Below, in pieces: positions 10,063-60,969 of a stretch of DNA of 64,000 nucleotides. The position numbers and the translations under genes were made by a program. Under the pieces are notes generated by a model, which was given only the letters and a program-made list of their open reading frames with translations, ran no database searches and was not told the DNA's origin. Numbering within the stretch: position 1 is the first letter of the stretch; each line of letters begins with the position of its first letter. This DNA is from an uncultured Mycoplasmatota bacterium (GTDB lineage Bacteria > Bacillota_I > Bacilli_A > RF39 > UBA660): the NCBI GenBank assembly GCA_900546245.1, contig URBY01000001.1:10038-74037 (forward strand), given 5' to 3'.

Positions 10063-11319
10063 GTGTTCAAATTAGTAATGGTGATAAATATGTTTGATAG
10101 TTATATAGTAAAAAATGAAACACTTTATATAGATTTAAATATTAATTATGATTTTGGGAACTTTAGAAATACTAAAACAAGTTTTAAAAATGAACTAAAG
10201 AAATTTTTAAATAATCTAAAAATAAATTTTAATAAAATTGTTCTTACATGTTCTGGAGTAATAATTGGAAGTATTATACTAACAAATAATAATTTTAATA
10301 ATGAAGTATCTATGAAATATGTTCCAAATATTGATACAAGTATTCCATATGTTACGCATTATGATAACGAAAAAAAAGATGACAATATATCAGTAAACAA
10401 TGATGTAAATGAAACTACAAAAAATGTAAATAATGGTCAAATTATTAACAATAATGTAGAAAAATCTGTAAATACAGAGCATTCAAACATAGATAATGTA
10501 AGCTTTAATAGCACAACTAATTCTAGTGTGTCAGAAATTACTGTTTATAGGTCAAATGGAAGCGTAATTAACCTTAATATGACTGATTATTTAATAGGAG
10601 TTGTATCATCTGAGATGCCAGCATCATTTAATTTAGAAGCATTAAAGGCACAAAGTGTACTTGCTAGAACATATGCATTAAAAGCAAAACAAACTGGAAA
10701 AAAATTAACAGATACAGTAAGTACTCAAAGTTATATTGACATAGATCAAATGAAAAATAAATGGGGAAATAGTTTTAATACATATTATAATAAAATTAAA
10801 AATGCTGTGGAAAATACAAATGAAGAATATTTAAGCTACAATGGAAATTATATTGAAGCATTATATCACTCTACAAATAATGGTAAGACAGAATCATCCC
10901 TTGATGTATTTGGAAATTATTATCCATATCTTATTTCAGTATCATCCGAATATGATAAAAATGCATCAAGTTATTTAAGAACAATAAATATGCCACTTGA
11001 TACAATATCAAATAAACTTGGATTAAGTTTAAATAATGATTCTGTAATAAGTATTCTTAGTTATACAGATGGAGGCAACATAAAAGAAATTAATATTAAT
11101 GGAAATAATTTTTCTGGTAAAAAAGTAAGAGAACTATTGGGTCTTAGAAGTGCTGACTTCGATATTAGTATTAGTGATAATAATGCAAATATTACAACTA
11201 GAGGATATGGTCATGGTGTAGGTATGAGCCAATATGGCGCAAACGGTATGGCAAATGCTGGATATAGTTATAAAGATATTTTATCTCATTATTATCCAGG
11301 AACAACACTTACTAAATAA
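10063..11319 (+). CDS. SpoIID/LytB-domain protein (stage II sporulation protein D-like lytic transglycosylase/amidase enhancer), 418 aa
   Basis: N-terminal TM segment and a C-terminal SpoIID/LytB domain (…LEALKAQSVLARTYALK…EALYHSTNNGKTES…). The start may instead be the ATG at 10090, which is preceded by GGTGAT. Confidence 0.7.
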   Translation: MFKLVMVINMFDSYIVKNETLYIDLNINYDFGNFRNTKTSFKNELKKFLNNLKINFNKIVLTCSGVIIGSIILTNNNFNNEVSMKYVPNIDTSIPYVTHYDNEKKDDNISVNNDVNETTKNVNNGQIINNNVEKSVNTEHSNIDNVSFNSTTNSSVSEITVYRSNGSVINLNMTDYLIGVVSSEMPASFNLEALKAQSVLARTYALKAKQTGKKLTDTVSTQSYIDIDQMKNKWGNSFNTYYNKIKNAVENTNEEYLSYNGNYIEALYHSTNNGKTESSLDVFGNYYPYLISVSSEYDKNASSYLRTINMPLDTISNKLGLSLNNDSVISILSYTDGGNIKEININGNNFSGKKVRELLGLRSADFDISISDNNANITTRGYGHGVGMSQYGANGMANAGYSYKDILSHYYPGTTLTK

Positions 11320-13819: not shown

Positions 13820-13880
13820 AAAAATCCTCCTTCTTTTTATATTTTGATTAAATTCCAAATTTTTATTCAAAAAAATAAAA

Positions 13881-13907
13881 AAATGAGTAATTATTTTTTA
13901 CCCATTT
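13881..13907 (-). terminator. Intrinsic terminator at the end of the SpaA-like gene
   Basis: 8-bp stem AAATGAGT…ACCCATTT (one G·U) followed by a long U-run on the minus transcript. Overlaps the last codons of the gene. Confidence 0.5.
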
Positions 13908-16470
13908 TTTTGTTTAAAATTATTAATCCTGCAATTGCTACAACTAATACTGTTATTATAATAGCATATCTAATTCTTTGTTGTCCTGTTGAAATATTAA
14001 TAATTAATTCTGCTTGTGCTTCAGCACCTTCACCAACAGTAACTTTTTTATTAATGATTGTTGTTGTACCAATTACATATCCATTTTCATTAACAACAAA
14101 ATCAGCATTTGTTTCACTTACCTTTGGAAGTACAAATCCTTCTGGTGCTTCTATTTCAACCACTCTGTACTTTCCTTTAGCATTTACATCTACAAAGCAA
14201 GTTTCACCATTCGCAACTGGTGAAAATGTATATATATCACTTTTACCAGTTGTATCAAATGTATAATTATTTTCCTTTTCATGGAATATTAATGATACAT
14301 CTTCATATGTTGAATTTTTTTCATTATATACTTGTATTTTAAACTTACCATCAGCTAAATAGTTGCCATCTTCATCTATTTTATAGAAACAGAACTCTCC
14401 TTTTGCATTTGGCCACTCTAATATCTGAGCTGGAGATGTTTGTCCACTTCTTGTTACTACAACTTTAATTTCTTTCCATTCAACAGTTGGATCAATCACA
14501 TATCCATCCACAGTTTTAACTTCTTTTAAATAATATGTCCCAACTGGTAAATAATTAATTGTTATTTTACCAGATGCATTTGTAATTAATTGAATTGGTG
14601 TTCCTGTTCCACCTTCTGGATATTGATATATTCCTTCACCTGTTTTAGTCAAATTAATTTGCTTTGACTTATCACTGTTATATAATTCAAAAGTTACACC
14701 CGGTAATTTTACATTATTCTTACCTTTTTTAATAATCTCAACCTTTGTTTTATAATTATTAACAGTTACAGATGCATTTGATGCTCTTTCATATTTTTTA
14801 GTAGTGTAATTATATACGAATAAATCATAATTAACATCTATTTTTATTTTTGTTTCTCTTTCTTCTTTGGTACTAGAAAGCGTATATGGATATACAACTC
14901 CTGTTTCTTCAATTATATATTCACCTTTAGGTAAAAGTGCAAATACATATGTACTTTTATTTGCATCATATAATGTATTTACATCTCCACTAGATGAATA
15001 AACATAACTTCCACTATTTAATTTTTTAAATTTAATATAATTACCATTAGAATCTTTTATTCTAAAATGAGTTCCCTTTACTACTTCCTTAGTTGTTCCA
15101 TCAATTTTATTAATAGAATATTTTTTACTTTCATTATAAATATTTACAAGTGCTATCTCATTTTCAGAGCCAGGTTTTACACTGTTTTTATTAGCTTCAG
15201 GAACACTTACAACTGTTTTACCATTTTTTATACTAAATAGAACATAAAAATCTCCTATTTTTTCATATCCTGGTGGTGTTTGTGTTTCTCTAAATAAATA
15301 ATAACCTGTTTTTAATAATTTATATTCTTTAGAAGTAGAATTATTTGATAAATCAATTGTATAAGCAACATTTTTTAAGTCACAATCTCCAGTTGTATTA
15401 GTACATTTAAATACATTAAATTTTGCTCCCTTTAAATCTGTTCCTGTATCTTTATCCTTTTTTACAATTTTAAATTTACCTTCCTCTGTTTTTACATTTA
15501 ATGATCTTTCAAATACTTTTTGATAGTTACCCATTAATACATCTTGTAATCCAGCAGTAGCAAATCTAAACCATCTAAATGATGAACTACCTGCAACTGT
15601 AGTACCTTTTACTAATTTAAATTTTATACTTGCAGGATTTTCAATTGTATTTTTTGAATAAAATTTAACTTTACCTCCATTTTTATCAGATATTGATACA
15701 CCACTTGGAAGTGATGATGTATCTATATTGTATGAACCAACATCAATACCTTCTGATTCATATTGTTTAGTCGAATCATTCCAAGATAAAGTAAATGTTT
15801 GTCCAAATGCTGCTGGAACATTACCTTCTCCTGATAAATCACGAGCTTGATCTAGTATATTCTTATATATTGATAGAAGAGCTGGATCACTTGAAACATA
15901 ATTATATGTATTATTAGGTACACCATTTTGTGGATCATAATTATAATTATGTCTAGCATTTTCCATTACTTCCCATACAAGTATTTGTGTAACTAATACC
16001 CTTCTACATACATTTGCGTCTCTACATGTTGCTTTAAATCCACCACTGTTTGGAACAACAATTGTTCCTTCTATATTATTATTACCATTTTGATATCCAC
16101 TTGCTAATATATTTTTTAAAAGTTCTTGCTGTGATGCAGATAGTGTTTGTCCTGTTGTTGTACTATATAAATCTGCAAAACCACTATGCTCATAAACAGT
16201 TTCTTTTTCATGAACACCTTTACCAGCATGTAAACAGTAACCATGGTAATAATCATTTCCTTGATAAACTTCATGTATATTAAACCAAGATGATTGATAA
16301 AAGTTATGTGCAACACTATTACTTATATTATATCTACCACCAGGTGCAGTAGTAAATGTTGATAATTTAACCCATTTTGTACTATATTCCCATGCTGAAA
16401 CATTTCGAAATGGAAAGAAGATAATAATTGAAATAAATAATATAATAAATAATCTTAACTTCTTATTCAT
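13891..16470 (-). CDS. Secreted multi-domain surface protein with SpaA/CnaB-type (prealbumin-like) domains and a C-terminal sorting-signal-like anchor (NISTGQ + TM + KKMGKK), 859 aa
   Basis: The start is the RBS-supported (AGGAGG) ATG at 16470-16468 (MNKKLRLFIILF… signal peptide). CnaB-like segments (YYLFRETQTPPGYEK; TYYLKEVKTVDGYV; GKYRVVEIEAPEGFV). C-terminus …NISTGQQRIRYAIIITVLVVAIAGLIILNKKMGKK. Confidence 0.6.
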   Translation of the reverse strand: MNKKLRLFIILFISIIIFFPFRNVSAWEYSTKWVKLSTFTTAPGGRYNISNSVAHNFYQSSWFNIHEVYQGNDYYHGYCLHAGKGVHEKETVYEHSGFADLYSTTTGQTLSASQQELLKNILASGYQNGNNNIEGTIVVPNSGGFKATCRDANVCRRVLVTQILVWEVMENARHNYNYDPQNGVPNNTYNYVSSDPALLSIYKNILDQARDLSGEGNVPAAFGQTFTLSWNDSTKQYESEGIDVGSYNIDTSSLPSGVSISDKNGGKVKFYSKNTIENPASIKFKLVKGTTVAGSSSFRWFRFATAGLQDVLMGNYQKVFERSLNVKTEEGKFKIVKKDKDTGTDLKGAKFNVFKCTNTTGDCDLKNVAYTIDLSNNSTSKEYKLLKTGYYLFRETQTPPGYEKIGDFYVLFSIKNGKTVVSVPEANKNSVKPGSENEIALVNIYNESKKYSINKIDGTTKEVVKGTHFRIKDSNGNYIKFKKLNSGSYVYSSSGDVNTLYDANKSTYVFALLPKGEYIIEETGVVYPYTLSSTKEERETKIKIDVNYDLFVYNYTTKKYERASNASVTVNNYKTKVEIIKKGKNNVKLPGVTFELYNSDKSKQINLTKTGEGIYQYPEGGTGTPIQLITNASGKITINYLPVGTYYLKEVKTVDGYVIDPTVEWKEIKVVVTRSGQTSPAQILEWPNAKGEFCFYKIDEDGNYLADGKFKIQVYNEKNSTYEDVSLIFHEKENNYTFDTTGKSDIYTFSPVANGETCFVDVNAKGKYRVVEIEAPEGFVLPKVSETNADFVVNENGYVIGTTTIINKKVTVGEGAEAQAELIINISTGQQRIRYAIIITVLVVAIAGLIILNKKMGKK

Positions 16471-19400
16471 TGTCATATCCTCCTTCTTCCATTTCATCTT
16501 CTGTAACCTCATTATCTATAATTGTATATTCATCATCATCAACAATTTCTAAGAAATTAGTAATAATTGGCTTTATTTTTAAATCTGTTGCTGCAACAAA
16601 ATTTATATAATCTCCACCATTATTTGTAACTAAATCTAATACAATTGTTATATAATATTTTTCACCAGGCATAATCATTGTTTTATTAAGGTCTTTATAA
16701 TATAAATTACCTTCACTTTCATACCATCCATCATTTTCTGGTAGATTTGGATTAAATGTCATACCTTCTGGTATTGTTTCTATAATATTTCCGATTGTAC
16801 CTGGAAAATATCTTGAGTTTTCAAGTTCAATTAAGTAACTTACTCTAAATGATGTATTTTTTAAGTTTTTAACATCTATTTTAACTTTATTTTGTTTTTC
16901 ATAATCATATGATTGAACACCTTTATTAGATGTTACTGTTACATTTGTTATATATTTATTCATTTTAATATCAAAATCTTGTCTTACTCTTAAACCTAAA
17001 TCGATATTTGATGCCGCAACTATATCATTATCTAACTTAACTATATTAGACACTGCTGAACAAGTTCCATCGTTTAACATATCTGCATCAGAATCTACTA
17101 AAGATAAATCTCCTTTACCTGTAGGATCCTGTTTATTTTTTTCTGTTACAGTATATTTATCACAATCAAATGTATATTTAACATAATAATTACCAGATGT
17201 TAATGCTTTAAATTTATAAGCACCTTTTAAATTTGTTACAGTTTCTTCAACTAATTCATCACTATCACTTATAACTTCTAATGGCTTTTTATAATCTGTT
17301 ACATTTGAAGATGCTTTATATAATTGAACTATAATATCTGATAATCTTGGTTCTTTATTAGAATATATTCCATCATAATTTTGATCTTCAAATACATAAC
17401 CTGATATTGTTCTATTATATACAGAAACTGTTGAAACATTTGAGCTATATACTCTTGTACCTATTTCAGTAGATGTACATTCATTTTCATTTGCATCTTC
17501 ATCCTTACAAATTAAACTATTTTTATGTAACATATAGAAATTATTATTATATGTATCTAATTCTTTGTTACCTTTTGTTGTTATTACAATATTTATTCCG
17601 GTTTCACCTGCGAAATAACTTCCCTTTTGAATTGGATTTGATGAAACAATTTTTATTGCAGTAACATCATTAGTTACAAAAGTATAGTTTGTCCATTTTG
17701 TCCAATTAACAGAATTTGAATTTTTCATTTCATTATTTAATATTGTTTTAGGATTATCCTTTGTATAATATGCTTCATAACCTGCTGGTAATGTATTATA
17801 TATAGAAACACCAATAGTTCCACTATAAGTTGATCCATATGATGAACCAACACCATCACCATTATAAGGAAGTATATTTAATAATTCTAAGTTGGCATTA
17901 TCTGCTACAAGATTTGTAGCCTTCATATTATAACCATAACTTCCATTTGCCTCGATATAATTTAGACCAACAGAACCAAGTGCTGTAATATCATTTGTAT
18001 TTCTCAAAATTATTTCTTTTGTATTTGTTCTTAAACTTTCTGGTGTATTTGCTGGAATTTCAAGTGTTGCATTTGTATTAGGTTTTACCTTACCTGTTAT
18101 TACCGCTTTTATATTAGCAGCAGTATTATCCAAAGTATTAATAACTACATAAGCATGAATTTTTAATACTGGTATAGTTCCTGCGGCTGAAACACTTTCT
18201 TTTTTTATTTCCTCTGCACTATAGCTATATGAATATGTTAAATAACTTTTACCATTAGCATCTGTAGCTTCAGATGGAGTACCTACTGGTTTTTTATCTC
18301 CCTTTAATACTGCAACCGTCATAGATGTTGGAAGTGTAACACTTACTGTAGCACCTGATATTTCAGCATTCATATCTGATTTATATATTACTGGTCTTAT
18401 TTGAATTTCCATTGGATCATTTTGTCCAGAATATATTTCATTTTTCTCTGAATTATTTTTATCAAGAACTGTTATATCATCTATTGATGCTTTTAATCCT
18501 GTTACAATAATACTATTACCATATTTACTTTTTGGGCTTTCCTCTTTTGATACTTTATACATTGCATTATCATATAATGTTTTGCTATAAGACATATCAC
18601 TTGTTTGTTTAGACAAATTAACTGGTATTACATTTTTTCCTGATTCATACATATAAAATCTTTCTTTATTACCATCTTGTTCCCAGTCTGTAAATCCACG
18701 TGAGACAACTTGATATGAATTACCAACTAAATTTGTGTTATTTTTAACTTGTGCTTTAAATCTAAGAGTTGTTGTAACACCTGTTTTGTATGTACTTGAA
18801 ACATTTAATCTAATAAGAATTATTTTATCACTATTACTGCTATTTACAGCTGTTGCTTCATTTATTGATTCATACCATTTAACAGATGAATTTTCTTCTA
18901 TACATGGTCCGCCATAATAATTCATTAATTCTTCTTTTGATAATTTTGATAAATTAGTTGGACAATAGCTTGGTGCATCACTTTTAACTTTAAAATAATT
19001 TGAATTCCATTCACCAATACCATAATTTAATGTATATTGATGATTTTTATCCTTATCACTAAAGTTAATATAATAATCTTTACTTTCATCTGATAAATTA
19101 TTTATATTTATAATTTTTATTGCTGTATTATCTATTTTTAAATAGTTTGTGATTCCATTTGGTAAATCATCACCTACATTAAGCCCATAATTTATTGTAT
19201 CTTGTATATAAAATTCTTCATTATAGTTATAAAATGCAGAATTTGGTAATGTAGTAACTGGTTTATCTGTTATTTCAGATGTTTGAATATTATTTGAATT
19301 AATAAAATCAACTTTTGATAGATAATCCCCTACAAAAGGGACATAATTATCTAACATAGTTATACTCTCACCATTTGCTGATATTGTATAATTAATATTA

Positions 19401-20512
19401 CTCTTATTTGTAAAATCTGTTCTTTCAGTATTAATAATTAATTGTTTTGTTGATACATAATTTACATTAACCGGTTTATCTTCTGTACCTAAATTAATTG
19501 TTTTATCATGATACATTAAATTTTTTATTGTTATTTTGTATGTATTATCATTTACTTTTTCAATACCAGAATTACCATTTTTATTACCATCATATGAATA
19601 AGGAAGCTCTGCAATTACATATTCACTATCACTATTATAATTTCCAACAGTAGGAGTATCTAATACTCTTGAAATTGCTAAATCAGAAGAAATATTTACA
19701 TCAAAAGATATTTTTGAAGGAACCTGTAATCCAAATATTCCCTTGTTAGAATCAAATGGTAAATATATAGCAATACCTACTGGTAATGAAGCACTACCAA
19801 CTTCTTTTCCTTTAACAACACCATTATATAATTTTAAATTCCATGCTTCTTTTGCAGTTACTGTTACTTCTTTAACACTTATGCTATCAGATACATCTGA
19901 ATCATCTGTATAAATTTTATAATTTTCATCTGTTGATTCTCTAACTCTTATAAGTGGATTAATTGTTTGATTATTTTTCGAATTTATATTAGAAACATTA
20001 ATTCTAGCTGTATTTTTATCAGTTAAAACTGAATCAGGTATATCAAAAATATAATAATTATAATTTTTACCATCAATTGTAATATTCTCATGTTTTGATG
20101 CTGCAGTTGCAGTTGATGAATCACCTTTTTCAGATACATCTGCTGTTATATCTGATGGTAAAAGAAAATCAACTATAACATGACGTTGTGGATCTGTAGG
20201 TTTTTCATCTAAACTAGAATCTTCTTTATAATCAAGATTATAAGATATATCATATTCTACCGAATCAAAACTTCTTACAATTCCATTACTATCAGATGAA
20301 TCATTTCCTTCTTCATCATTAGAATCAAAATTACCATCTTTATTTGGTGTACCATCTATAACAGATACTTTTGCATTTTTTACTTCAATTTGATTAGCAA
20401 AAGGATCTTCTTCTGCAGTAACAAATAAATATATACCGAATGATAATATTAAAAATGCAAAAACTGATAATACAATTCTATATTTATATATAAATTTTTT
20501 TATAGTTTTCAT
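16463..20512 (-). CDS. Giant secreted adhesin-like protein (1349 aa) with SdrD B-like/CnaB and DUF11-like repeat domains and an acidic C-terminus
   Basis: The start is the GGAGG-supported ATG at 20512-20510 (MKTIKKFIYKYRIVLSVFAFLILSFGIYLFVTA signal). SdrD-B-like SGYVFEDQNYDG…, DUF11-like …GTIGNIIETIPEGMTFNP…. The stop overlaps the start of the next gene (ATGAATAA). Confidence 0.6.
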   Translation of the reverse strand: MKTIKKFIYKYRIVLSVFAFLILSFGIYLFVTAEEDPFANQIEVKNAKVSVIDGTPNKDGNFDSNDEEGNDSSDSNGIVRSFDSVEYDISYNLDYKEDSSLDEKPTDPQRHVIVDFLLPSDITADVSEKGDSSTATAASKHENITIDGKNYNYYIFDIPDSVLTDKNTARINVSNINSKNNQTINPLIRVRESTDENYKIYTDDSDVSDSISVKEVTVTAKEAWNLKLYNGVVKGKEVGSASLPVGIAIYLPFDSNKGIFGLQVPSKISFDVNISSDLAISRVLDTPTVGNYNSDSEYVIAELPYSYDGNKNGNSGIEKVNDNTYKITIKNLMYHDKTINLGTEDKPVNVNYVSTKQLIINTERTDFTNKSNINYTISANGESITMLDNYVPFVGDYLSKVDFINSNNIQTSEITDKPVTTLPNSAFYNYNEEFYIQDTINYGLNVGDDLPNGITNYLKIDNTAIKIININNLSDESKDYYINFSDKDKNHQYTLNYGIGEWNSNYFKVKSDAPSYCPTNLSKLSKEELMNYYGGPCIEENSSVKWYESINEATAVNSSNSDKIILIRLNVSSTYKTGVTTTLRFKAQVKNNTNLVGNSYQVVSRGFTDWEQDGNKERFYMYESGKNVIPVNLSKQTSDMSYSKTLYDNAMYKVSKEESPKSKYGNSIIVTGLKASIDDITVLDKNNSEKNEIYSGQNDPMEIQIRPVIYKSDMNAEISGATVSVTLPTSMTVAVLKGDKKPVGTPSEATDANGKSYLTYSYSYSAEEIKKESVSAAGTIPVLKIHAYVVINTLDNTAANIKAVITGKVKPNTNATLEIPANTPESLRTNTKEIILRNTNDITALGSVGLNYIEANGSYGYNMKATNLVADNANLELLNILPYNGDGVGSSYGSTYSGTIGVSIYNTLPAGYEAYYTKDNPKTILNNEMKNSNSVNWTKWTNYTFVTNDVTAIKIVSSNPIQKGSYFAGETGINIVITTKGNKELDTYNNNFYMLHKNSLICKDEDANENECTSTEIGTRVYSSNVSTVSVYNRTISGYVFEDQNYDGIYSNKEPRLSDIIVQLYKASSNVTDYKKPLEVISDSDELVEETVTNLKGAYKFKALTSGNYYVKYTFDCDKYTVTEKNKQDPTGKGDLSLVDSDADMLNDGTCSAVSNIVKLDNDIVAASNIDLGLRVRQDFDIKMNKYITNVTVTSNKGVQSYDYEKQNKVKIDVKNLKNTSFRVSYLIELENSRYFPGTIGNIIETIPEGMTFNPNLPENDGWYESEGNLYYKDLNKTMIMPGEKYYITIVLDLVTNNGGDYINFVAATDLKIKPIITNFLEIVDDDEYTIIDNEVTEDEMEEGGYDNE

Positions 20513-20587
20513 ATGAGCCTCCATATTATTATTTCTTATAATAATTAAACCATTTTTTTTAAATAAAATCAATAAAATACAAAAAAA

Positions 20588-20607
20588 TTATGAGTTATTA
20601 CTCACAA
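20588..20607 (-). terminator. Candidate terminator after the 221-aa gene
   Basis: TTATGAGT-(4 nt)-ACTCACAA stem with an A7 run on the plus strand, giving a U-run on the minus transcript. Confidence 0.35.
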
Positions 20608-21253
20608 TTTTCTTATTTTCTATTAAACATATTAAATTCTTCAATTTTATAAATTTACTATCCTTATTTTTTGTTATATTTATAAGCTTACTATATATTC
20701 TATCTACATCATCTGTTTTTTCATTATAAATTTCATAAAATATATATTTAAGTTTAGAATCCTCATTATTTTTTAACATTTTTTCTAGTTTATTTAATAA
20801 ATATTTTTGAATTTCTCTTTCTTCTCTTGTGCAAAAATTTAATTTTTTATTTTTTTTATTTGTTACTTTGTAATCAATTATAGAATATTTAATATCAGAA
20901 ACATAATCAAGTATTTCCTCTTCTTCATCAACACTTATATTACTTTTCATATAACTTTTTCCATCTGAATCAAATTCTAGTGCAACTACACTTTTTTCAC
21001 AAGCAAAAACACATGAATACTTAATTATTTTAATTGAATTAGGCGCATATACTTCAGTTTTATCTAAAATTAAATTTAAAAAATTTTTGCTTACAATAAT
21101 ATCATTATTTTTTATACTAATAAAATCTTCATAACTTACTTTAAATACAGGTATTTTTAAAATAAATTCTACTTCATCTTCATCTTTCCATTCATAAAAT
21201 TCATATAAATTATTTTTGTTAAAATTTAATGTTATATCATAAATATAATTCAT
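20588..21253 (-). CDS. Hypothetical cytoplasmic protein, 221 aa
   Basis: Strong AGGAGG RBS. No recognisable motif. Confidence 0.45.
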   Translation of the reverse strand: MNYIYDITLNFNKNNLYEFYEWKDEDEVEFILKIPVFKVSYEDFISIKNNDIIVSKNFLNLILDKTEVYAPNSIKIIKYSCVFACEKSVVALEFDSDGKSYMKSNISVDEEEEILDYVSDIKYSIIDYKVTNKKNKKLNFCTREEREIQKYLLNKLEKMLKNNEDSKLKYIFYEIYNEKTDDVDRIYSKLINITKNKDSKFIKLKNLICLIENKKIVSNNS

Positions 21254-24403: not shown

Positions 24404-24492
24404 GAAAAAAATGCACAAAATATTGAAAATATTGTGCATTCTTATATTTTTTAAGCACTATTTTGCGCAATCATTGTGCATTTTTTATTCTT
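24404..24492. repeat. Direct repeat copy A (about 87 bp) carrying two palindromic hairpins; the 3' flank of the Fic gene
   Basis: …AATGCACAAAATATTGAAAATATTGTGCATT…TGCGCAATCATTGTGCATTTTTTATTCTT. About 85% identical to copy B at 25604-25690. Includes the stop and last codon of Fic. Confidence 0.6.
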
Positions 24493-25567
24493 TTCCTACA
24501 AATACATTATATATTTCACTATATCTATATGCTAGTTTTGCATAATTATCATCAATATCTAATATACCTATTTTAACAAGCTCATCAATTAATGTTGAAA
24601 CTGTATTTCTTGATACACCAGATTCTTCTTCTATCTCTTTTTTTGTAAATACAATTTGATGTATTAATGATGGCATAATTCTATAAACAGCATTACTATT
24701 GAGTGTTTTAATTTTTTGCATATCTTTATTATATATTTCTTTAATTCTATTTATTTTAGCAATATAATTATTACACTGTTCAATAATACACTGCAAAAAG
24801 AATTTAATAAATCCAGCCATATTACCTTTTCTACTTTCATTTAAATATTTATGATAACTTGGTTTATAAAGTTCAATTACTTCTGATAAAAAAAGTATTG
24901 GTTTATCATCAGTTAACATTGCAAGTTGTATTGGAATAAGTGCTCTACCTAATCTTCCATTACCATCTCTATATGCATGTATTGTTTCAAATTGAGAATG
25001 AGAAATAGCCATATTTACAAATATTGGATCAATAAATTCATCATTCATATATTTAAATAAATTATCTAAAAGAATTGGAACATCTTCCGGAATAGGAGGA
25101 ACATAAATAGCCTCTTTAATTGTACATCCTCTTGGACCAATCCAATTTTGAATATTTCTAATTTTTCCAGGTTCTTTATTTTGACCTCTAACACTATCTA
25201 ATAATATCTTATGAATATTATTTACAAAAACTAAATCTATTTTTCTATTTGTCTTGATATAATTTTCCGAATATTCAATTACTTCTTTTAAATTTTGTAT
25301 CTCACTCTTCTCATCATTATTTGGCATATATTTTATATAATACATATCATCTTGAGAAATTTGTGTTCCTTCAATTTGTGTAGATTTCAAACTTTCGCTT
25401 AAGATAATTGAATCTAAAAAATATCTTGAGTCAAAATCAATATTTTTTAAATAAGTTTTATACTCTCCATATTTTTCATTTGCCTCAGATAATAACTTTA
25501 ATAACTCTTTATCAATTTTATATTCAATTGGTAACTCATTTACTTTAATTGGTTCCATTTTCATCAC
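24485..25567 (-). CDS. Fic-family protein (AMPylation-type motif, probable N-terminal inhibitory helix, C-terminal winged-helix), 360 aa
   Basis: Canonical Fic motif HAYRDGNGRLGR. An upstream STQIEG matches the (S/T)xxxE(G/N) auto-inhibition motif. C-terminus is wHTH-like (…VSRNTVSTLIDELVKIGIL…). Confidence 0.8.
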   Translation of the reverse strand: MMKMEPIKVNELPIEYKIDKELLKLLSEANEKYGEYKTYLKNIDFDSRYFLDSIILSESLKSTQIEGTQISQDDMYYIKYMPNNDEKSEIQNLKEVIEYSENYIKTNRKIDLVFVNNIHKILLDSVRGQNKEPGKIRNIQNWIGPRGCTIKEAIYVPPIPEDVPILLDNLFKYMNDEFIDPIFVNMAISHSQFETIHAYRDGNGRLGRALIPIQLAMLTDDKPILFLSEVIELYKPSYHKYLNESRKGNMAGFIKFFLQCIIEQCNNYIAKINRIKEIYNKDMQKIKTLNSNAVYRIMPSLIHQIVFTKKEIEEESGVSRNTVSTLIDELVKIGILDIDDNYAKLAYRYSEIYNVFVGKE

Positions 25568-25603: not shown

Positions 25604-25690
25604 AGAAAATGCACAATATTTTCGATATTTTGTGCATTTTTACTTTTTTTAGACACTATTTTGCACAATGATTGTGCATTTTTTATTCTT
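25604..25690. repeat. Direct repeat copy B (about 87 bp) at the 3' end of the T4CP gene
   Basis: …AATGCACAATATTTTCGATATTTTGTGCATT…TGCACAATGATTGTGCATTTTTTATTCTT. Perfect palindrome TGCACAAT-G-ATTGTGCA plus a T-run, so it is terminator-like. Includes the stop and last codon of the coupling-protein gene. Confidence 0.6.
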
Positions 25691-27926
25691 CAAAGAAGAA
25701 ATCATCAAAGAAATCATCATAATCAGAATCATTATCTTTTTTGACATTATTTTTTTGTTCTTCTTTATTTTCATTATCCATTTTTTCTTTATCATCTTTT
25801 ATTTTAAAGTTTTCAAAATCAACCATATTACTATGAATAATCTCATTTACATTTGGATCAGTTGATATATTTCTTGTATCAAATAATTTTTCTTCTTCAC
25901 TATTACTCTTAATAGGTTCTGGTTCTGATGCAGGTTTATCTATATTTTTTTCTTCTAAATTATTAATTACTTCTTCTTTAGATTCTATTTTTTTATTTTT
26001 TTCTGCTTCTTGTTTCTTCTTTTCTTCTTCCTCTTCTTTTTCAAGTTCAGCAATTTTAGCATCAATTTCCTTGATCATTTTATCAATATCCATATCTGAA
26101 CCCATACCTTTTATACCACCAAAAGGATTCATACCAAAAGGTGAACCACCACCCATTGGTGAAGAAGAATTACCATCAAAACCTGCATTTTGAAGCTTTT
26201 CTTGTTTTTGTTTTCTAACAAATTCTTTCAAATCAAATGTTTTAATCTCATCCATAGTTCTTTGTGGATAAACAACATTTTTTCCATAGTGATCAACACC
26301 TCTACCAAAACCAAAATCAGTATCCCAGTCCATTTTTAGTTTTCCCCTGAAAGGCGCACATCTTTGTTTAATTAATATGATTTCATCAGGCTTCATTCTT
26401 TGAAGTTCTGATACAGTAACAAGAGGTCTTGTTTCTTCTTTTTTATCTTTACCAACTCTAACAAGTTTATCACCACATAATTTACTAATTTCTTCCAAAG
26501 CTGATAATTCTCCTGTTAATAAATATATTAAGTTACCACAGTTACCACGAATAGTTTCAGCATCATGATCACCATAATTTTGTTTTAACTGTGCAAAATT
26601 CTGAATGATAAATGTAAATCTAATTTGTCTTGAACGAGCAGCAGTAACCATTGTTGTAATATCTTTAAACTTAGGCATGTTAGCAAACTCATCAAGTAAG
26701 AAATTTGTTCTAACAGGAAGTTTTCCACCATGTTGTTGTGCAACATTTATTAAAGCTTCATAACATTGTTTAACAAATATAGTAGCAAGTGAATGGTATG
26801 TTGTTTTTTCATCTTGTATAATCATAAATACTGCTGTTGGTTTTTCACCTATACTATCCATATCAAAATCACTCTTAGAAAGCATTTCAGATAAGTTTTT
26901 AGTAACAGCTAGTGTTTTAACCTTGTCCTTTAATACAGATACGATACCACCTTTTGTTTCATTTGGTGCATTAACTGTACCTAAAGCATTAACACATGCT
27001 GGCGAAGCTGGATCTTTAGCATTAAAATATTCCTTTAAATAGTTTGATGCACCATATTTATCTTCACCTGTTGTCATCATTAAATTAACACTATTTATAT
27101 TTATTTCTTCTTCTGGAGCATCCTCAAATAAAGCAAGTGATAAACCTGTTAAATAACTAGCAGCAGAATTTTGCCAGAATGGATCTTGTCCTTGACCATC
27201 TACAACTATATTAAGTGATAAGTCATTTAAAAGTTCATTTGCTTTATCAAAATTACCTTCCTTTTGATATTTGTATGGTAAATGATAAGGATTCCAACAG
27301 TTACCTTTTTGTGGATCACGGAAATTAAGTATTATAATTTGATAACCTAGTTCCCTCATTATTCCAGAATTATCATTATATATTTCACCTTTAGGGTCAG
27401 ATATAATCATTGATTCTCTACCCTTTATAAGCATTTGAACAGTTGGATTAATTATACCTTGAGTTTTACCTGAACCTGTCGCACCAATAACAAGTGTATG
27501 ACTTTCACCATTATCTACATAAGCTGCTTCTTTATCATATACTAAAGGTGTACCACCTGCTTTTGCTTCTTTTTCAACATATGGAACTCTTACAACACCT
27601 TTGGCTTTTTTTATTTCTCCCTCTTTTGCCCATCTAGCATAACCATCTTCTTTTTTCTCACTAGTATAACCAAAACCTTTTTCTCTAGTAAAGAAATATG
27701 ATGATGTACTTGCAAATAGAAATGCAATAGAAGCAATCCAAAGCATTATTGTTACACCAATATATTTTGGAGTAAACGCTAAAAATGGATTTAATCCCCA
27801 AGGTGTACCTTCATTTATAATAAATGAGAAATTAAGTACACATAAACATACTAAATAAAGCATAAAAACAGATATTACTGCAAACGCTATTACATCTTTT
27901 TTTTCTGCCCTAAACTTTAATTTCAT
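25683..27926 (-). CDS. Type IV secretion coupling protein (VirD4/TraG-family T4CP), 747 aa
   Basis: N-terminal TM helices, Walker A VIGATGSGKTQG, Walker-B-like FLLDEFANM and an acidic/charged C-terminal tail. Confidence 0.7.
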   Translation of the reverse strand: MKLKFRAEKKDVIAFAVISVFMLYLVCLCVLNFSFIINEGTPWGLNPFLAFTPKYIGVTIMLWIASIAFLFASTSSYFFTREKGFGYTSEKKEDGYARWAKEGEIKKAKGVVRVPYVEKEAKAGGTPLVYDKEAAYVDNGESHTLVIGATGSGKTQGIINPTVQMLIKGRESMIISDPKGEIYNDNSGIMRELGYQIIILNFRDPQKGNCWNPYHLPYKYQKEGNFDKANELLNDLSLNIVVDGQGQDPFWQNSAASYLTGLSLALFEDAPEEEININSVNLMMTTGEDKYGASNYLKEYFNAKDPASPACVNALGTVNAPNETKGGIVSVLKDKVKTLAVTKNLSEMLSKSDFDMDSIGEKPTAVFMIIQDEKTTYHSLATIFVKQCYEALINVAQQHGGKLPVRTNFLLDEFANMPKFKDITTMVTAARSRQIRFTFIIQNFAQLKQNYGDHDAETIRGNCGNLIYLLTGELSALEEISKLCGDKLVRVGKDKKEETRPLVTVSELQRMKPDEIILIKQRCAPFRGKLKMDWDTDFGFGRGVDHYGKNVVYPQRTMDEIKTFDLKEFVRKQKQEKLQNAGFDGNSSSPMGGGSPFGMNPFGGIKGMGSDMDIDKMIKEIDAKIAELEKEEEEEKKKQEAEKNKKIESKEEVINNLEEKNIDKPASEPEPIKSNSEEEKLFDTRNISTDPNVNEIIHSNMVDFENFKIKDDKEKMDNENKEEQKNNVKKDNDSDYDDFFDDFFFEE

Positions 27927-27969
27927 AAAATCTCTTCCTTCTTATCAATTTACTATATTATAACAAAAA

Positions 27970-27993
27970 AATAAGTATTTTGAAATACTTATT
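27970..27993 (-). terminator. Intra-operon intrinsic terminator/attenuator between the hydrolase and T4CP genes
   Basis: Perfect 10-bp stem AATAAGTATT / AATACTTATT with a 4-nt loop. The A-run on the plus strand gives a U7 run on the minus transcript. Confidence 0.45.
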
Positions 27994-27996
27994 TAA

Positions 27997-30900
27997 TTAT
28001 TGGTTTGCATATCTATTATAAATTTGATTTGCATTCGATACTCTTGAATTCTGAGCACTTATTGATTGGTCTGCAGGACGTTCAAACTTAAGCATAAACG
28101 CTTTTGTAGCAGAATCAACACTAACATTAGGATTTTGCAATGTATTATATAGGTCACTAAACTGAGTTGGAAGTATTCTATTAAGATAATCTATTTGCAT
28201 TGCAGTATCACCAATAGACAATTTTCTTTCAGTTTTTGCATAATCATACAATCCTTCTTTTAATGTGTAGTAAGTCCACTGGACAATACCATATCCTCCA
28301 CCATTTGGTCCATTTTTAGAAAATGAAGTACGATTTATAGACCCTTTATCTACATTATCTGTATAAGTAATACTCGTTTCTGTAACACTACCATTCCCAG
28401 ATGTATCACCTTGTAAAACTCTACCATCAAATGTTGCCGCAGATTCAGTATACATATTTCCCATTATACCAGCAACAGCAGTTTTAGGATATCCTAAACC
28501 TACTAAATAGTTCCAAACTGCTTCTTCATTATTTGAACCAGCAAATATACCTCCAGAAGAACATTGAATAAATAAATTTGTTGGATCAATAGCTGAATCC
28601 TGATCATTATGAAATTCAAAATGTAACCCTGGATTAGATGAAGCACCAATCACTCCAATTTTAGTACCTTTTGATACATTAGTTCCTTTTGTAAGAGTTA
28701 CAGAATCTAAATTATTATATACTGAGTAAAAATTATATTCATTATTACCAATAACAATATTATGTTTTATCTTAACCCAAGATCCATATGTATCATTCAC
28801 TGAACCACCAATAGCATTTTTTATATTATTTACAAGGATAGCTTGACCACTAGAATTTAAATGTAAACCATCATTTGTATATGAAGACTTAATATATCCA
28901 TTTGATTCATTAAGTCCATTTGTTACATCAACATATGTTGCCCAAGAATTTGATGAACACCAAGAACTCATAGTTTGATTAAAGCTATCTATCATAGCAT
29001 TTGTAACAGAACCTCTATACTTAGTTCCAACATGATATACACTATTAACATATATTTGAGCACTTGGATATCTTGTATGAAGACTATTTAACATATTTTG
29101 CATATTTGAAGTCTGACTAACATTATTTACCCCTAACATAACTGATATACCATTTGCAGTACTTGGCAAAGCAATTCTTGTTCCTAACACAGTACCACTA
29201 CCATTACTTGCTACGCTCTCCCACTGTGCTGGAGTAGAACTTGTAACCGCCGCTACTGTGTTATTTTGACCTAAACCTTCAAGATTACTTTTAATTCCTA
29301 CATATCTTGAATCACCTATAAATAAATAATTTGATATTGATGATGTACTTTGATTTGAACTTCCACTTGTTCCAACACTATCAACAACACCATTTGCAAT
29401 AGCAAATACATCAGTTCCAGCTGAAACACCTGCAGTAGATGAATTTAAATCAACACCTCCATGAAATCCAGCAGAAGTAACACCAAAAGAATTATTTTCA
29501 CCAAAAGAAACCGTTGTTCCTTCTGGTATATTTACAGGTTTTTGAAGTTCGGATACTAAATTTGCATCAATTGCTCCCAAACAACTATCAGCATAACCTT
29601 CACTATCAGAATCAATATATTGTAAAAATATATCTTTAAATAAATTTTTATTTGATACTATATCTTTATATAAATATTCCTTTTTTTCTTCTCTTGCATC
29701 TCCTGTAAGTCCACCTAACATACTTCTAAACTCAGGCATACGTTCAAAATAGTAATTCATTAAATAATTTTTATAATTTTCTTCATCAAAAGCAAATTGT
29801 CTATATGTTACTTTTATACCTGTAAGTGATACATCAACATCTGTTATATCTGCAATACCATAAAATATATCACTAACGAGCACTTTAAACGTATCTACAA
29901 AATCTCCACCAATTAATGATAAATTTTGAAAATATTCTCCGGAATATTTTGATCCTATGGCATCCGCATATATTTCATTAAACGGTAATAATATCGAAGT
30001 AAATGTATAGGCTACGAAATCAGATAGCATATCCTTTACATCATTAGCGATATTACTACCATATTCATCTAAAAAATCGGATAAAGATACTGTTTTTGTT
30101 GGCCCTTTTCTCTCTGATAAACCAAATGAATTTGTATAAAATTGGTTCCTAGCTAGTTTACGTAACCTATATATTTTACCAACATTATATGTAAGGCCAT
30201 CTTCTCCTACAGTTTCTTTTGACATGTCATATTTTTCTCTCAAATATTCTTTTACAACATTTTGACTACCAGAATTAGACCCTATTGATGATCCATCAAG
30301 AACAGAATCATCATCCATTTCACCATATTCAGTATCATAACCCATGCCTTCTGTATAAAATAATGTTGCCAAAATAAGAGGTACATCCATACCGGTTTCA
30401 TCGTTTGAACAACCATATCTATCGCACAAATCATCTAATTCATCATAAAAAGCCTCTTTTGAATCTTGAAATCCAAAACCATTATAAAAATTAGTTAACT
30501 TTTCACTAAAATCTGCAGTCTTAGTAATAGCTTCATCTATATTACCCCAAACTTCCATTAATGGACCTAGTATTAATTCTATTACAAAAAATGCAAGTGC
30601 TAAACCTAGAATTAAACCTGCTGCATATGGTGCAATTGCAAGCAATATTTTTTTTGCTACCTTTTTGGCAGCTGTTTTTACAGCTGCCTCAGCAGTACTC
30701 TTAGCAGCTTCTATAGGATGCCTTGCTTGATATGCTTTAGATTTTAAATTATCTTTTTTTGCATTAAAAATATCTTTTTTAGCATCTTTTAAATTATTTT
30801 TTTCTTTTTTCTCATTTGCTTTTGCTTCTTTAGCTTCTGATTTAGCATTTTTATATTCTTCCTTATCAGAACTAGTTCTTTGTCCTCTTGGGATAGAATT

Positions 30901-40616: not shown

Positions 40617-41552
40617 CTATTCTATATTTATTAAATCCATATAATTTTCTGGGAAACCTAATGTATCATATAATTTATTAATTTTTACTGATTTTATTTG
40701 CCATGTTAAATCTTGAAGTTTAAGATTTATTTCATCCATCATATGCATAAATTCATCTTTTGTAAGCATTTGTTTTAATATTATTATTAACGCAAATATA
40801 TCATTTTTTCCTTTTATGTATTCACCAAATTCATCTTGCTTTATTTTTAGTTCATTATGATATTTAGTATTAGAAATATATTTTTGTGTTCTATGATCAA
40901 ACACTATATCTTCATGTGCACATAAATTTCTATAATTTGCAAGTAACGATAAATATACTTCCATATCTTCCATTTCAATTCCATAAAGATCTGCTATTTC
41001 TTTTTGATCCTCCGGTTTTAGTATTCCATAAAGTTCATTTATTAAACCAAATGACAGCACTTTTACAAGTACCCATAAAGGAATATAACCATAATTTGTT
41101 ACATAATGAAGAGTCGCACTATGATTTTGACTATTTACTCTAATCTGTCTTTTCATTTTATTTATTACATCACTAACTCTTCTTTTATTTTTATTGTCAG
41201 TTGTAAAATTTGATTCTTTTAAATAATTTTTCTCTTTATAACCATATTTAACAGATAATTTATAAGATATTATGCTTTTAATATTATTTTCTACTATAAG
41301 CAAATTTTTAAATAATATATTTCTAAATTCTCTATCAAACATAAAAATTGCATATAATTCATCAAAGGTTGCACCTTTTACAAATTTCTTTTCTTTTGAT
41401 GAAACCATTAATACTCTTCTATAACCATTTATAAAAAAGTAATTTTCTTTTAAAAGTATATTTCTTGCTTCTTCTTCATCATTTATAGTAAGACCTTTAC
41501 TTTTAAAAATTCCAAGTTGTTCATCAAGAGTTTTAAATTCCTTTTTATTCAT
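40617..41552 (-). CDS. Abortive-infection protein, Abi_2 (AbiD/AbiF) family, 311 aa
   Basis: N-terminus …LDEQLGIFKSKGLTINDEEEARNILLKENYFFINGYRR… is typical of Abi_2. 311 aa. Confidence 0.65.
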   Translation of the reverse strand: MNKKEFKTLDEQLGIFKSKGLTINDEEEARNILLKENYFFINGYRRVLMVSSKEKKFVKGATFDELYAIFMFDREFRNILFKNLLIVENNIKSIISYKLSVKYGYKEKNYLKESNFTTDNKNKRRVSDVINKMKRQIRVNSQNHSATLHYVTNYGYIPLWVLVKVLSFGLINELYGILKPEDQKEIADLYGIEMEDMEVYLSLLANYRNLCAHEDIVFDHRTQKYISNTKYHNELKIKQDEFGEYIKGKNDIFALIIILKQMLTKDEFMHMMDEINLKLQDLTWQIKSVKINKLYDTLGFPENYMDLINIE

Positions 41553-41898
41553 ATTTAAATCACCCTACTATTATAAATTATAACATAATTTTTTTTAGAC
41601 TTAAAGTATTTAAATTTATTTCTACAACTTAACACTTTTTTCACATATTTTCACATATTTTATATTTTTGGTCGAAATCTTCGAACAAAAGTTTTTCGGA
41701 TTCTTTTCATGCAAACAAAACAAAAAAACATTCTGAAAATCTATATGGGTTATATCTTCTGCCACCATAACCATTTTCTAAACTTGAGGTCGAAAATTTC
41801 AACCTCAAGTCTGTAAATTCAAAATCAATAAAAAAAATCTTTATGGTAATTTATATACATTGTTTTTTACTGTCTCATTTATTTTATTTGTTCATACA

Positions 41899-42753
41899 TT
41901 AATCTTCTTCTATATTTTTGATTATTGTTTCTAAATACTCTTTATCCTTTATCTTAGTAATCGCAAAACATTTATTACCTAAATCTTTATAGCTTGCTCC
42001 TGAATGATACAATACTTTTTTATCAAGTATTATGAATCTATCATGAAACTTATCACTGTATATTACTTTCAAATTATGGTATTGCCTATTATATTTTTTT
42101 ATATCTATATCTTTTAATAAATTAAATTTTTTAGTTACAATAGTTACTTTTACATTTAGGTTCGTAATCATATCTAAAATACTTTTGTCTTCATAATTAT
42201 CTATTATAATTATTTCTTTCTTTGCTTCTTTAAATATATCAATTAATAGTGAATATGCATCATATATTTGTCCTTCATAAAATATTGTATTAATTTTCTC
42301 TTTTTCATTTAACTTATCAAAAGATTCCTCTAATTTTAAAATTCTTTCTTCATGATTTAATATTATTGAAGTTTTATTTTCAAATGATAAATACCTTTTC
42401 ATATAAACAAATGCATCGATTATTTTCATACTTACAATATCTGCAACAGGTGTTTTAAGTATTGTTGCAAGCATTGCGACTCCCTGTTCTGTAAACGCAT
42501 ATGGCATTGTTCGAATTTTATTAACTTGCGGTCCCATGTTGGGACCGCAAATATTTTTAAATTCTAATTCATTAAGTTGAAACATATATCTTTCTGGAAA
42601 CTTATTTATATGTCTCTTTACTGCTTGATTAATAGTTTTAGTTCCGTTTGTACATTCATATAATCTTGCTAAATCCGAATCTAGCATTACTTGTTTACCT
42701 CTTATTTCATATATCATATCTTCTATGCTTAAATCTTCTTTTAATTCGTACAT
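41899..42753 (-). CDS. ORF6N-domain (Ant/antirepressor-like DNA-binding) protein with an uncharacterised C-terminal domain, 284 aa
   Basis: N-terminus IYEIRGKQVMLDSDLARLYECTNGTKTINQAVKRHINKFP… (ORF6N). AGGAGG RBS. Confidence 0.6.
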   Translation of the reverse strand: MYELKEDLSIEDMIYEIRGKQVMLDSDLARLYECTNGTKTINQAVKRHINKFPERYMFQLNELEFKNICGPNMGPQVNKIRTMPYAFTEQGVAMLATILKTPVADIVSMKIIDAFVYMKRYLSFENKTSIILNHEERILKLEESFDKLNEKEKINTIFYEGQIYDAYSLLIDIFKEAKKEIIIIDNYEDKSILDMITNLNVKVTIVTKKFNLLKDIDIKKYNRQYHNLKVIYSDKFHDRFIILDKKVLYHSGASYKDLGNKCFAITKIKDKEYLETIIKNIEED

Positions 42754-60945: not shown

Positions 60946-60969
60946 ATGCTTCACCTATTCTTTAATAAA

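Follow-up and report, generated by a model that had tools for sequence, protein, structure and literature searches.

How is a surface protein sorted when its C-terminus is built like a sortase signal and the LPXTG motif is missing from it? This question is raised by two adhesin genes, at locus A and locus B, in a 64,000-nucleotide stretch of contig URBY01000001.1 (the window). Positions 13891-14040 on the minus strand contain the stop codon and the final 49 codons of the locus A open reading frame (ORF), which the preliminary description of this DNA had singled out as a sorting-signal-like tail shared with the locus B adhesin. On balance, the 44-residue tail is fairly likely to be a diverged LPXTG-type sorting signal, that is, a sortase substrate with a new motif variant which is carried by a surface-protein family of an uncultured lineage of gut Bacilli. 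The reading is built on the architecture of the tails, their conservation, their homology to LPXTG anchors, with which they are continuous, and the exposed location of the motif in an unstructured segment, all of which we regard as established. Judged from these sequences, a sortase of the lineage probably accepts the unusual motif; the presence of such a sortase in this genome, its cleavage at T|G and its class are points that we infer.

Two Adhesins End in a Tripartite Tail

The locus A adhesin ends in AELIINISTGQQRIRY, followed by a hydrophobic helix and NKKMGKK (in full ...VTVGEGAEAQAELIINISTGQQRIRYAIIITVLVVAIAGLIILNKKMGKK and the stop), and the locus B adhesin ends in AELIVSIQTGQTVIKY, a helix and KKKAK (in full ...SSSSAELIVSIQTGQTVIKYGLIISILVALISLLMILKKKAK and the stop). 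Both C-termini read as they had been quoted in the preliminary description, with the minus strand as the coding strand, and the tripartite layout that it had reported was borne out by both tails, each of which consists of a motif, a hydrophobic stretch and a basic tail. The parts are VTVGEGAEAQ-AELII-NISTG-QQRIRY-AIIITVLVVAIAGLIIL-NKKMGKK in locus A and SSSS-AELIV-SIQTG-QTVIKY-GLIISILVALISLLMIL-KKKAK in locus B (Table 1). NISTG, QQRIRY, the 17-residue hydrophobic stretch and NKKMGKK make up a complete tripartite signal in the locus A adhesin, with T-G located 30 residues from the end. When all six frames of the window were scanned, T-G followed by a hydrophobic stretch, a basic tail and a stop codon occurred only in the tails of locus A and locus B.

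The pentapeptide had previously been given as I-S-T-G-Q, which is off by one residue. Because the LPXTG models TIGR01167 and PF00746 place their T-G on the T-G of the tails, the equivalents of L-P-x-T-G are N-I-S-T-G in locus A and S-I-Q-T-G in locus B. From this register we infer that the scissile bond in the locus A adhesin would be T842|G843.

The Tail Is Conserved Throughout the Lineage

Approximately 50 orthologues of the locus A adhesin, with 30-95% identity, retain AEL[IV][IV]xIxTG[QRN]xx[IV]xY followed by a hydrophobic stretch and a basic tail. No substitution of E835, L836, I840, T842, G843 or Y849 occurs across 17 of these orthologues, and conservation of A834 and I838 is 90% or higher. 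A profile of 43 positions was built from 31 tails (the A2 profile) and searched against 1.84 billion (1.84e9) protein cluster representatives, which gave 199 representatives at E<=1e-3, of which 73 reached E<=1e-10. Among the 150 matches listed, all are at the extreme C-terminus except for one weak 12-stretch internal match in P0212 (4003 amino acids), and the matching proteins are full-length proteins of ~500-4800 amino acids together with short gene fragments. Conservation of the tail is far beyond chance, and the shared conserved motif noted earlier is a real feature of the whole lineage.

Numbering the positions of Leu and Pro in LPXTG as P5 and P4, 180 unique tails were compared. T-G (P1-P1') is invariant. 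P4 is Ile in 151 tails (~84%), Pro in 15 and Val in 6, while P5 is Asn in 94, Thr in 24, Gly in 20 and Ser in 18, and P3 is mostly Gln, Ser or Arg. The residue after T-G is Gln in 114 tails, and the conserved Tyr of QxxI[KR]Y, tabulated as five residues after T-G, is present in 174. The upstream element is AELII, AELIV, AELVI, AEFII or AELVV in 115 of the 180, and the distance from T-G to the C-terminus ranges from 20 to 40 residues with a mean of 30. Members of the locus B family carry SIQTG, NIQTG, NIDTG or NISTG. The passenger domains found across the tail family are TED, SpaA, cadherin-like and transglutaminase-like domains; as these are typical of sortase substrates, they support the reading of the tail as a sortase signal.

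The Tails Form a Graded Series With LPXTG Anchors

The window tails, N-I-S-T-G and S-I-Q-T-G, retain only the T-G of the L-P-x-T-G consensus, and neither reaches the curated thresholds for sorting signals (gathering score of 20 for PF00746, Gram_pos_anchor; cutoff of 15.9 for TIGR01167). The locus B tail scores 14.3 bits with TIGR01167 and 12.8 bits with PF00746. When the bare tails were searched against NCBIfam at E<=10, nothing besides weak LPXTG models was returned and the boutique sortase-signal models gave no match. No curated sorting-signal model covers the window tails, in support of the earlier statement that the motif lies outside the classical sortase motifs.

Close relatives connect the tails to ordinary anchors. 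In locus B orthologues with 59-63% identity over 60-100% of the query, SIQTG is replaced by APRTG (P0056), GPRTG (P0057, P0058 and P0060) or SPRTG (P0061), so that Ile and Pro are interchanged at P4. The A2 profile also retrieves a subgroup of cadherin-like proteins of 500-680 amino acids which have LPQTG, MPQTG, FPQTG, TPQTG, LAQTG or IAQTG at the same position, followed by the QxVIKY-helix-KK continuation and without the upstream AELI element. One of these, the LPQTG protein P0200, scores 24.9 bits against the PF00746 threshold of 20. PF00746 was the top Pfam match for eight of ten isolated variant tails, always in the same register, with scores of 24.5 (MPQTG), 21.8 (TPQTG), 17.7 (GPRTG), 17.4 (FPQTG), 16.3 (IAQTG), 16.2 (NIQTG), 14.2 (LAQTG) and 13.1 bits (APRTG); the NVQTG and SPRTG tails gave no match. 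The variants form a graded series from bona fide LPXTG anchors to the window motif, and by sequence similarity the tails are homologous to LPXTG anchors. Because relatives carry xPRTG and the sister subgroup carries LPQTG, MPQTG or TPQTG, the window signal is best described as a diverged LPXTG-type signal with extra flanks.

The tails and the signals described by PF00746 and TIGR01167 have in common the tripartite layout, the distance from the C-terminus, the invariant T-G at the scissile position and passengers that are surface adhesins with an N-terminal signal peptide, and the sister LPQTG, MPQTG and TPQTG tails fit PF00746 itself. They differ in that Leu at P5 is exchanged for Asn, Ser, Thr, Gly or Glu and Pro at P4 mostly for Ile, and in the additional conserved flanks AE[LF][IV][IV] and QxxI[KR]Y.

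We propose the following mechanism. As the sequence suggests, the adhesin would be exported by its N-terminal signal peptide through the Sec pathway, and its C-terminal helix and Lys-rich tail would hold it in the membrane. By homology to LPXTG proteins, a membrane sortase would then cut between Thr842 and Gly843 of N-I-S-T-G (within S-I-Q-T-G for locus B) and would transfer the adhesin to peptidoglycan, where the TED would be displayed on an isopeptide-stabilised SpaA stalk. The canonical Leu-Pro at P5-P4 appears from the alignments to be replaced in this lineage, mostly by Asn-Ile. Conservation of the extra flanks suggests that recognition shifted from Leu-Pro to the neighbouring residues, and it has probably spread onto A-E-[LF]-[IV]-[IV] and Q-x-x-I-[KR]-Y.

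The Motif Is Predicted to Lie in an Exposed Linker

The last 183 residues of the locus A adhesin were modeled with AlphaFold2 using an alignment of 24 sequences (mean predicted local distance difference test score, pLDDT, of 78). The final SpaA domain is confidently predicted and ends at ...TTIINKK. Residues 827-844 (GEGAEAQAELIINISTGQ), which connect this domain to the helix, lack secondary structure and score under 50 in pLDDT. One helix (model residues 155-181, pLDDT ~86-88) begins directly behind TGQ and takes up the rest of the protein. Since the model leaves residues 827-844 unstructured, the motif is predicted to be exposed in a linker at the membrane face and outside any folded domain. 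A conserved sequence inside a linker that is predicted to be disordered suggests a recognition site. A role of AELIINI as the closing beta-strand of this SpaA domain was considered as well and was ruled out, as the modeled domain ends at ...TTIINKK and the following segment is unstructured.

Search for a Sortase and Weighing of Alternatives

No sortase was found in the 64-kb window with a TLxTC regular expression and Pfam scans of 27 of its larger ORFs, a set that excludes UvrA, UvrB and the ABC transporters. The survey of relatives comprised 12 look-ups of encoding contigs, 27 loci from GTDB genomes and 75 metagenome loci. None of the Pfam-annotated neighbours in the 12 look-ups is a sortase, and no sortase of this lineage was detected in ~1.8 Mb of related loci by phmmer combined with a regular expression for TLxTC, His and Arg, nor was one found within ±10 kb of 118 related loci. 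The phmmer queries were Staphylococcus aureus SrtA, Clostridioides difficile SrtB (in agreement with the sequence in PDB 5GYJ) and two sortases from the fetched loci. The sole sortases in the fetched DNA belong to Lachnospiraceae or Bacillus loci, whose adhesins end in ordinary xPxTG, and C. difficile SrtB matched only the Lachnospiraceae loci L026 and L028. A database search with the same SrtB gave 7115 matches, of which the best 120 were all from Clostridioides, Romboutsia, Paraclostridium, Clostridium or unnamed organisms. Housekeeping sortases are often unlinked to their substrate genes, and the absence of a sortase from these loci is therefore not decisive. A comparison of 2650 Bacilli genomes reports that srtA/B are absent from RFN20 and ML615J-28. 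It does not report this for RF39, which it counts with the orders that otherwise possess most of the genes for the wall, and retention of srtA/B in RF39 is thereby implied (PMC10868615).

Several observations weigh against a sortase substrate. In addition to the three negative searches of window, contigs and loci, the implied retention of srtA/B is indirect, since it comes from a KEGG-based survey and not from this genome (PMC10868615). At E<=10, neither PF00746 nor TIGR01167 matched the locus A tail. The tails are strongly conserved before as well as after T-G, and the segment that a sortase would discard holds a near-invariant Tyr; such conservation is atypical for LPXTG signals and could point to a different recognition machinery. 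A literature search yielded no paper that pairs IQTG with a sortase, the matches to ISTG were incidental, and no curated model or publication was found that covers an xIxTG signal. To our knowledge Ile at P4 has never been validated as a sortase site. Finally, the nearest published motif is NVQTG, proposed for C. difficile CbpA, and C. difficile SrtB cleaved SPKTG, PPKTG, SPSTG and SPQTG in vitro and did not cleave NVQTG (PMC4155245). The suggestion of a SrtB-like NxxTG specificity in the preliminary description is unsupported, and no sortase of any class was found in the window, within ±10 kb of the 118 loci or by the search with C. difficile SrtB.

The lack of a sortase in the window and in the related loci examined would be expected if the LPXTG-derived tail did no more than keep the adhesin in the membrane, in a bacterium with a thin wall and a reduced genome, with neither cleavage at T|G nor linkage to the wall. 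The reported loss of srtA/B in RFN20 and ML615J-28 and the reduced peptidoglycan toolkit of the whole group (PMC10868615) are in line with such an uncleaved anchor, and so is the conserved helix start QxxI[KR]Y (Tyr in 174/180), which is expected if the mature protein keeps its helix. A relic motif should decay, yet T-G never varies, and strong conservation of A-E-L-I-I-x-I extends to proteins with as little as 30% identity and to paralogous families with different passenger domains. Moreover, the motif has no obvious structural role in its unstructured linker in the AlphaFold2 model, and canonical LPQTG and MPQTG members persist in the tail family. We consider an uncleaved anchor unlikely.

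The lack of a sortase in ~1.8 Mb of related loci, together with the failure of the locus A tail to match any curated model, also bears on a second possibility, in which a non-sortase processing enzyme, for instance an intramembrane or membrane-face protease or a transpeptidase, would read AE[LF][IV][IV]x[IP]xTGQxxI[KR]Y at the membrane interface, by analogy to exosortase, archaeosortase, rhombosortase or CPBP-type systems. The ~16 conserved positions that abut the helix are nearer to PEP-CTERM or GlyGly-CTERM than to the five residues of LPXTG, and an Rce1-like/CPBP gene is located ~9 kb from one B-type cluster (L032). This gene was seen only once, however, and clustering of the ORFs of the loci showed that only the adhesin, the SdrD_B partner and housekeeping flanks recur, so that no candidate enzyme emerges. 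The graded similarity to PF00746 and the Ile/Pro interchange indicate ordinary LPXTG ancestry, and processing by a non-sortase enzyme is in our view distinctly unlikely. In a broader reading, AE[LF][IV][IV]-x-I-x-T-G-Q-x-x-I-[KR]-Y would mark a new sorting system, in which either the groove of a sortase has been re-specified for a beta-branched P4 residue and an upstream hydrophobic strand, or signals of LPXTG origin have passed to a non-sortase enzyme while the lineage loses its machinery for the cell wall. The two options are taken here as one joint reading, to which we assign a low probability; if true, the substrates of the system would come from a hypervariable cassette of two adhesin genes, in an uncultured order that is prevalent in the human gut.

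Comparison With Known Sorting Systems

The diverged LPXTG-type signal that we favour was compared with other systems. The substrates of C. difficile SrtB (class B) resemble the tails in having a small polar P5 with x-T-G, and both come from low-GC gut Firmicutes. SPRTG of the locus B relatives fits (S/P)PXTG, and the NVQTG proposed for CbpA is carried exactly by three members of the tail family. The window tails differ by having Ile at P4 instead of Pro or Val: with N-I and S-I at P5-P4 they do not fit (S/P)PXTG, which calls for Pro at P4 after a Ser or Pro. In addition, phmmer detected no class B sortase in the loci of this lineage. Departures from Leu-Pro occur elsewhere, as the class E signal is LAXTG and pilin signals are IPQTG, YPRTG or QVPTG, in which P5, and in class E also P4, may differ while T-G is kept. 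We know of no class E or pilin signal with a beta-branched Ile at P4 or with a five-residue hydrophobic element upstream.

The domains recognized by exosortases, archaeosortases and rhombosortases (PEP-CTERM, PGF-CTERM and GlyGly-CTERM) are similar to the tails in that a lineage-specific extended motif abuts a helix and a basic cluster, and in that one genome encodes many surface proteins, unrelated in other respects, which share the signature. Their signature motif is different, however, and the sequence similarity of the tails is to LPXTG anchors. No NCBIfam CTERM model matched the tails and no recurrent enzyme family was found near the genes.

The locus A adhesin itself resembles the TED adhesins of the Streptococcus pyogenes Cpa/SfbI type, which share the N-terminal TED with a Cys...Gln pair (C93 and Q176, in a TQxxxW context), the SpaA/CnaB stalk with conserved Lys and Asn, and the C-terminal wall anchor. 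It differs from them in its anchor motif and in its obligatory pairing with a giant anchorless SdrD_B protein, and context look-ups of A-type loci showed no pilus sortase in the locus.

Searches for sortase substrates usually rely on patterns or hidden Markov models of LPXTG-like motifs. As the xIxTG tails score under both curated thresholds, standard surface-proteome annotation does not see the principal adhesins of this lineage, which is uncultured and widespread in the gut, and their omission may contribute to statements of "reduced surface protein expression" in related orders. Pro at P4 is generally regarded as nearly obligatory in sortase motifs. If validated, an xIxTG specificity would extend the sortase recognition code, and protein ligation could gain a new orthogonal sortase/tag pair.

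The Adhesin Genes and Their Partners

The features of both loci and of the region between them are listed in Table 1. Pfam searches with the locus A adhesin gave 123 bits for SpaA and 29.5 bits for TED (PF08341, cutoff of 22), both over the cutoff. The predicted thioester would be formed by Cys93 (HGYCLHAG) and Gln176 (VTQILVWEV), in the numbering of the ORF, as expected from the sequence of a TED adhesin. C93, Q176 and W180 are invariant across 17 orthologues, as are K711 and N821, which form the Lys/Asn pair of the final stalk domain.

Table 1. Positions of the adhesin genes, the parts of their tails and other genes in the window.
Feature	Position	Strand	Description
Locus A adhesin gene	13891..16470	minus	Signal peptide, TED, four SpaA/CnaB-type stalk domains and C-terminal sorting-signal-like tail
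Mechanical ORF of locus A adhesin	13891..16512	minus	873 codons
Upstream element A-E-L-I-I	13999..14013	minus	Residues 834-838; family consensus A-E-[LF]-[IV]-[IV]
Pentapeptide N-I-S-T-G	13984..13998	minus	Residues 839-843; LPXTG position; register from PF00746/TIGR01167 alignments
Post-motif spacer Q-Q-R-I-R-Y	13966..13983	minus	Residues 844-849; family consensus Q-x-x-[IV]-[KR]-Y
Hydrophobic membrane-spanning segment	13915..13965	minus	AIIITVLVVAIAGLIIL, residues 850-866 (17 residues); from sequence, helix in AlphaFold2
Basic tail NKKMGKK	13894..13914	minus	Residues 867-873; from sequence
Stop codon of locus A adhesin	13891-13893	minus	From sequence
Motif-region peptides			AELIINISTGQQ; GAEAQAELIINISTGQQRIRY
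Locus A partner gene	16463..20572	minus	1369-codon secreted protein, SdrD_B domain (Pfam 41.7 bits), acidic C-terminus, without anchor
Fic gene	24485..25567		
VirD4-like coupling protein	25683..27926	minus	
Wall hydrolase	27997..31302	minus	1101 amino acids, GDSL + M23 + lysozyme
VirB4/TraG-like ATPase	31313..33103	minus	
TrbL_4-like membrane protein	33954..36026	minus	
Locus B partner gene	56371..60954	minus	1527-codon secreted SdrD_B protein (Pfam 53.8 bits), without anchor
224-amino-acid protein	61037..61711	minus	N-terminal membrane anchor; between locus B adhesin and partner
Locus B adhesin gene, 3' part	61720..>64000	minus	ORF leaves the window end; SpaA domains and same tail type
Locus B pentapeptide S-I-Q-T-G	61807..61821	minus	Preceded by AELIV (61822..61836), followed by QTVIKY, helix and KKKAK

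The start codon of the locus A adhesin is probably M15 at 16470, which is invariant in the orthologues and is preceded at 8 nt by AGGAGG, and the mechanical start at 16512 is probably not used. The ATG at 16470 is embedded in the final codons of the SdrD_B gene upstream of it (16463..16470, minus strand; ...GAC AAT GAA TAA), and because of this overlap the sequence suggests translational coupling of the two genes. Starting from M15, the N-terminus reads MNKKLRLFIILFISIIIFFPFRNVSA|WEY and, with its basic n-region, hydrophobic core and VSA, corresponds by inspection of the sequence to a Sec signal peptide. An ORF of 140 codons on the plus strand (13844..14266), antisense to the 3' end of the adhesin gene, is treated as spurious; its translation is Ile/Phe/Thr-rich, of low complexity and without relatives. 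Low-complexity antisense translations are typical of AT-rich genes.

The full-length locus B adhesin is ~1763 amino acids long in matching contigs (P0092, 1763 amino acids; 4823..10129 in L084), and the arrangement of the locus B genes is identical in L032 and L034. The 224-amino-acid protein is conserved in B-type loci, always between the SpaA adhesin and its SdrD_B partner, and its homologues (~220 amino acids) occupy this position in L032 (9417..10091), L033 (11654..12307) and L034 (6387..7049). The protein itself contains neither Cys nor His and has no Pfam or NCBIfam match, which rules it out as a cryptic sortase. Membrane-anchored proteins of ~170-200 amino acids with a repeated YYRTYTKEKGWTKWSKNG-type motif are encoded in L032 (5061..5576 and 10187..10780) and L034 (2166..2672). 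Such YYRTYTKEKGWTKWSKNG-type genes are located directly upstream of each SpaA adhesin gene in the B-type clusters of related contigs, and the matching position for locus B is past base 64000 of the window.

An SdrD_B partner gene adjoins the adhesin gene in every A-type locus. More generally, each AELI-type SpaA adhesin examined in A- and B-type loci, L114, L032 and L117 adjoins a secreted anchorless SdrD_B protein of 1300-1500 amino acids. This pairing, with translational coupling suggested in locus A, and the cadherin-like LPQTG-type protein, which has neither an AELI element nor a partner, would agree with a role of the conserved hydrophobic stretch AELIINI as a strand that docks on, or is donated to, the neighbouring SdrD_B giant; the tail would then be conserved through assembly of a two-protein adhesin, instead of or besides sorting. 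However, P0215 (AEYIIQIQTG) has no neighbouring SdrD_B gene, and the element is just seven residues long, disordered in the AlphaFold2 model and ~10 residues from the membrane. A docking strand is very unlikely in our judgement.

Organism, Variability of the Adhesin Pair and Other Genes

The window has a GC content of 25%. Housekeeping proteins encoded in the flanks share 93-99% identity with their counterparts on scaffold FR893547.1 of Clostridium sp. CAG:433, where the gene order is the same, and judged by this similarity the window is from the CAG:433 species or nearly so. GTDB places the family CAG-433 within the order RF39 (PMC8035907); the placement of this genome in that family rests on the GTDB naming convention.

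Window positions 13891..20572 (minus strand) were compared with loci L001-L003, L009 and L038-L075. The adhesin pair is hypervariable within this one species, as identity falls to 43-56% against 68-75% in the 44-residue tail and 97-100% in the flanks (RluB, PBP-S11 and a lipoprotein). That the tail holds up while the rest of the adhesin varies counts in favour of the sorting-signal reading. At least three allele classes were distinguished, with 88-96%, ~55% and 43-48% amino acid identity. This variability suggests cassette replacement or diversifying selection, and strong within-species diversification of thioester adhesins is a pattern expected at a host or phage interface. A gene of 221 amino acids beside the pair (20588..21253) is also variable (~69%). 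It was considered as a cryptic sortase and ruled out, since its only match, to DUF3603, is weak and its product contains neither a signal nor a membrane segment.

A conjugation/type IV secretion module (25683..37602, minus strand) is located between the two adhesin loci and is probably an integrated conjugative element. Finally, an Abi_2 (abortive-infection-like) gene, an ORF6N-domain gene and a second Fic/DOC gene were observed at 40617..42753 and 46638..47330 (minus strand) amid WhiA, Lgt and UvrA, and these may be remnants of defence systems or mobile elements.

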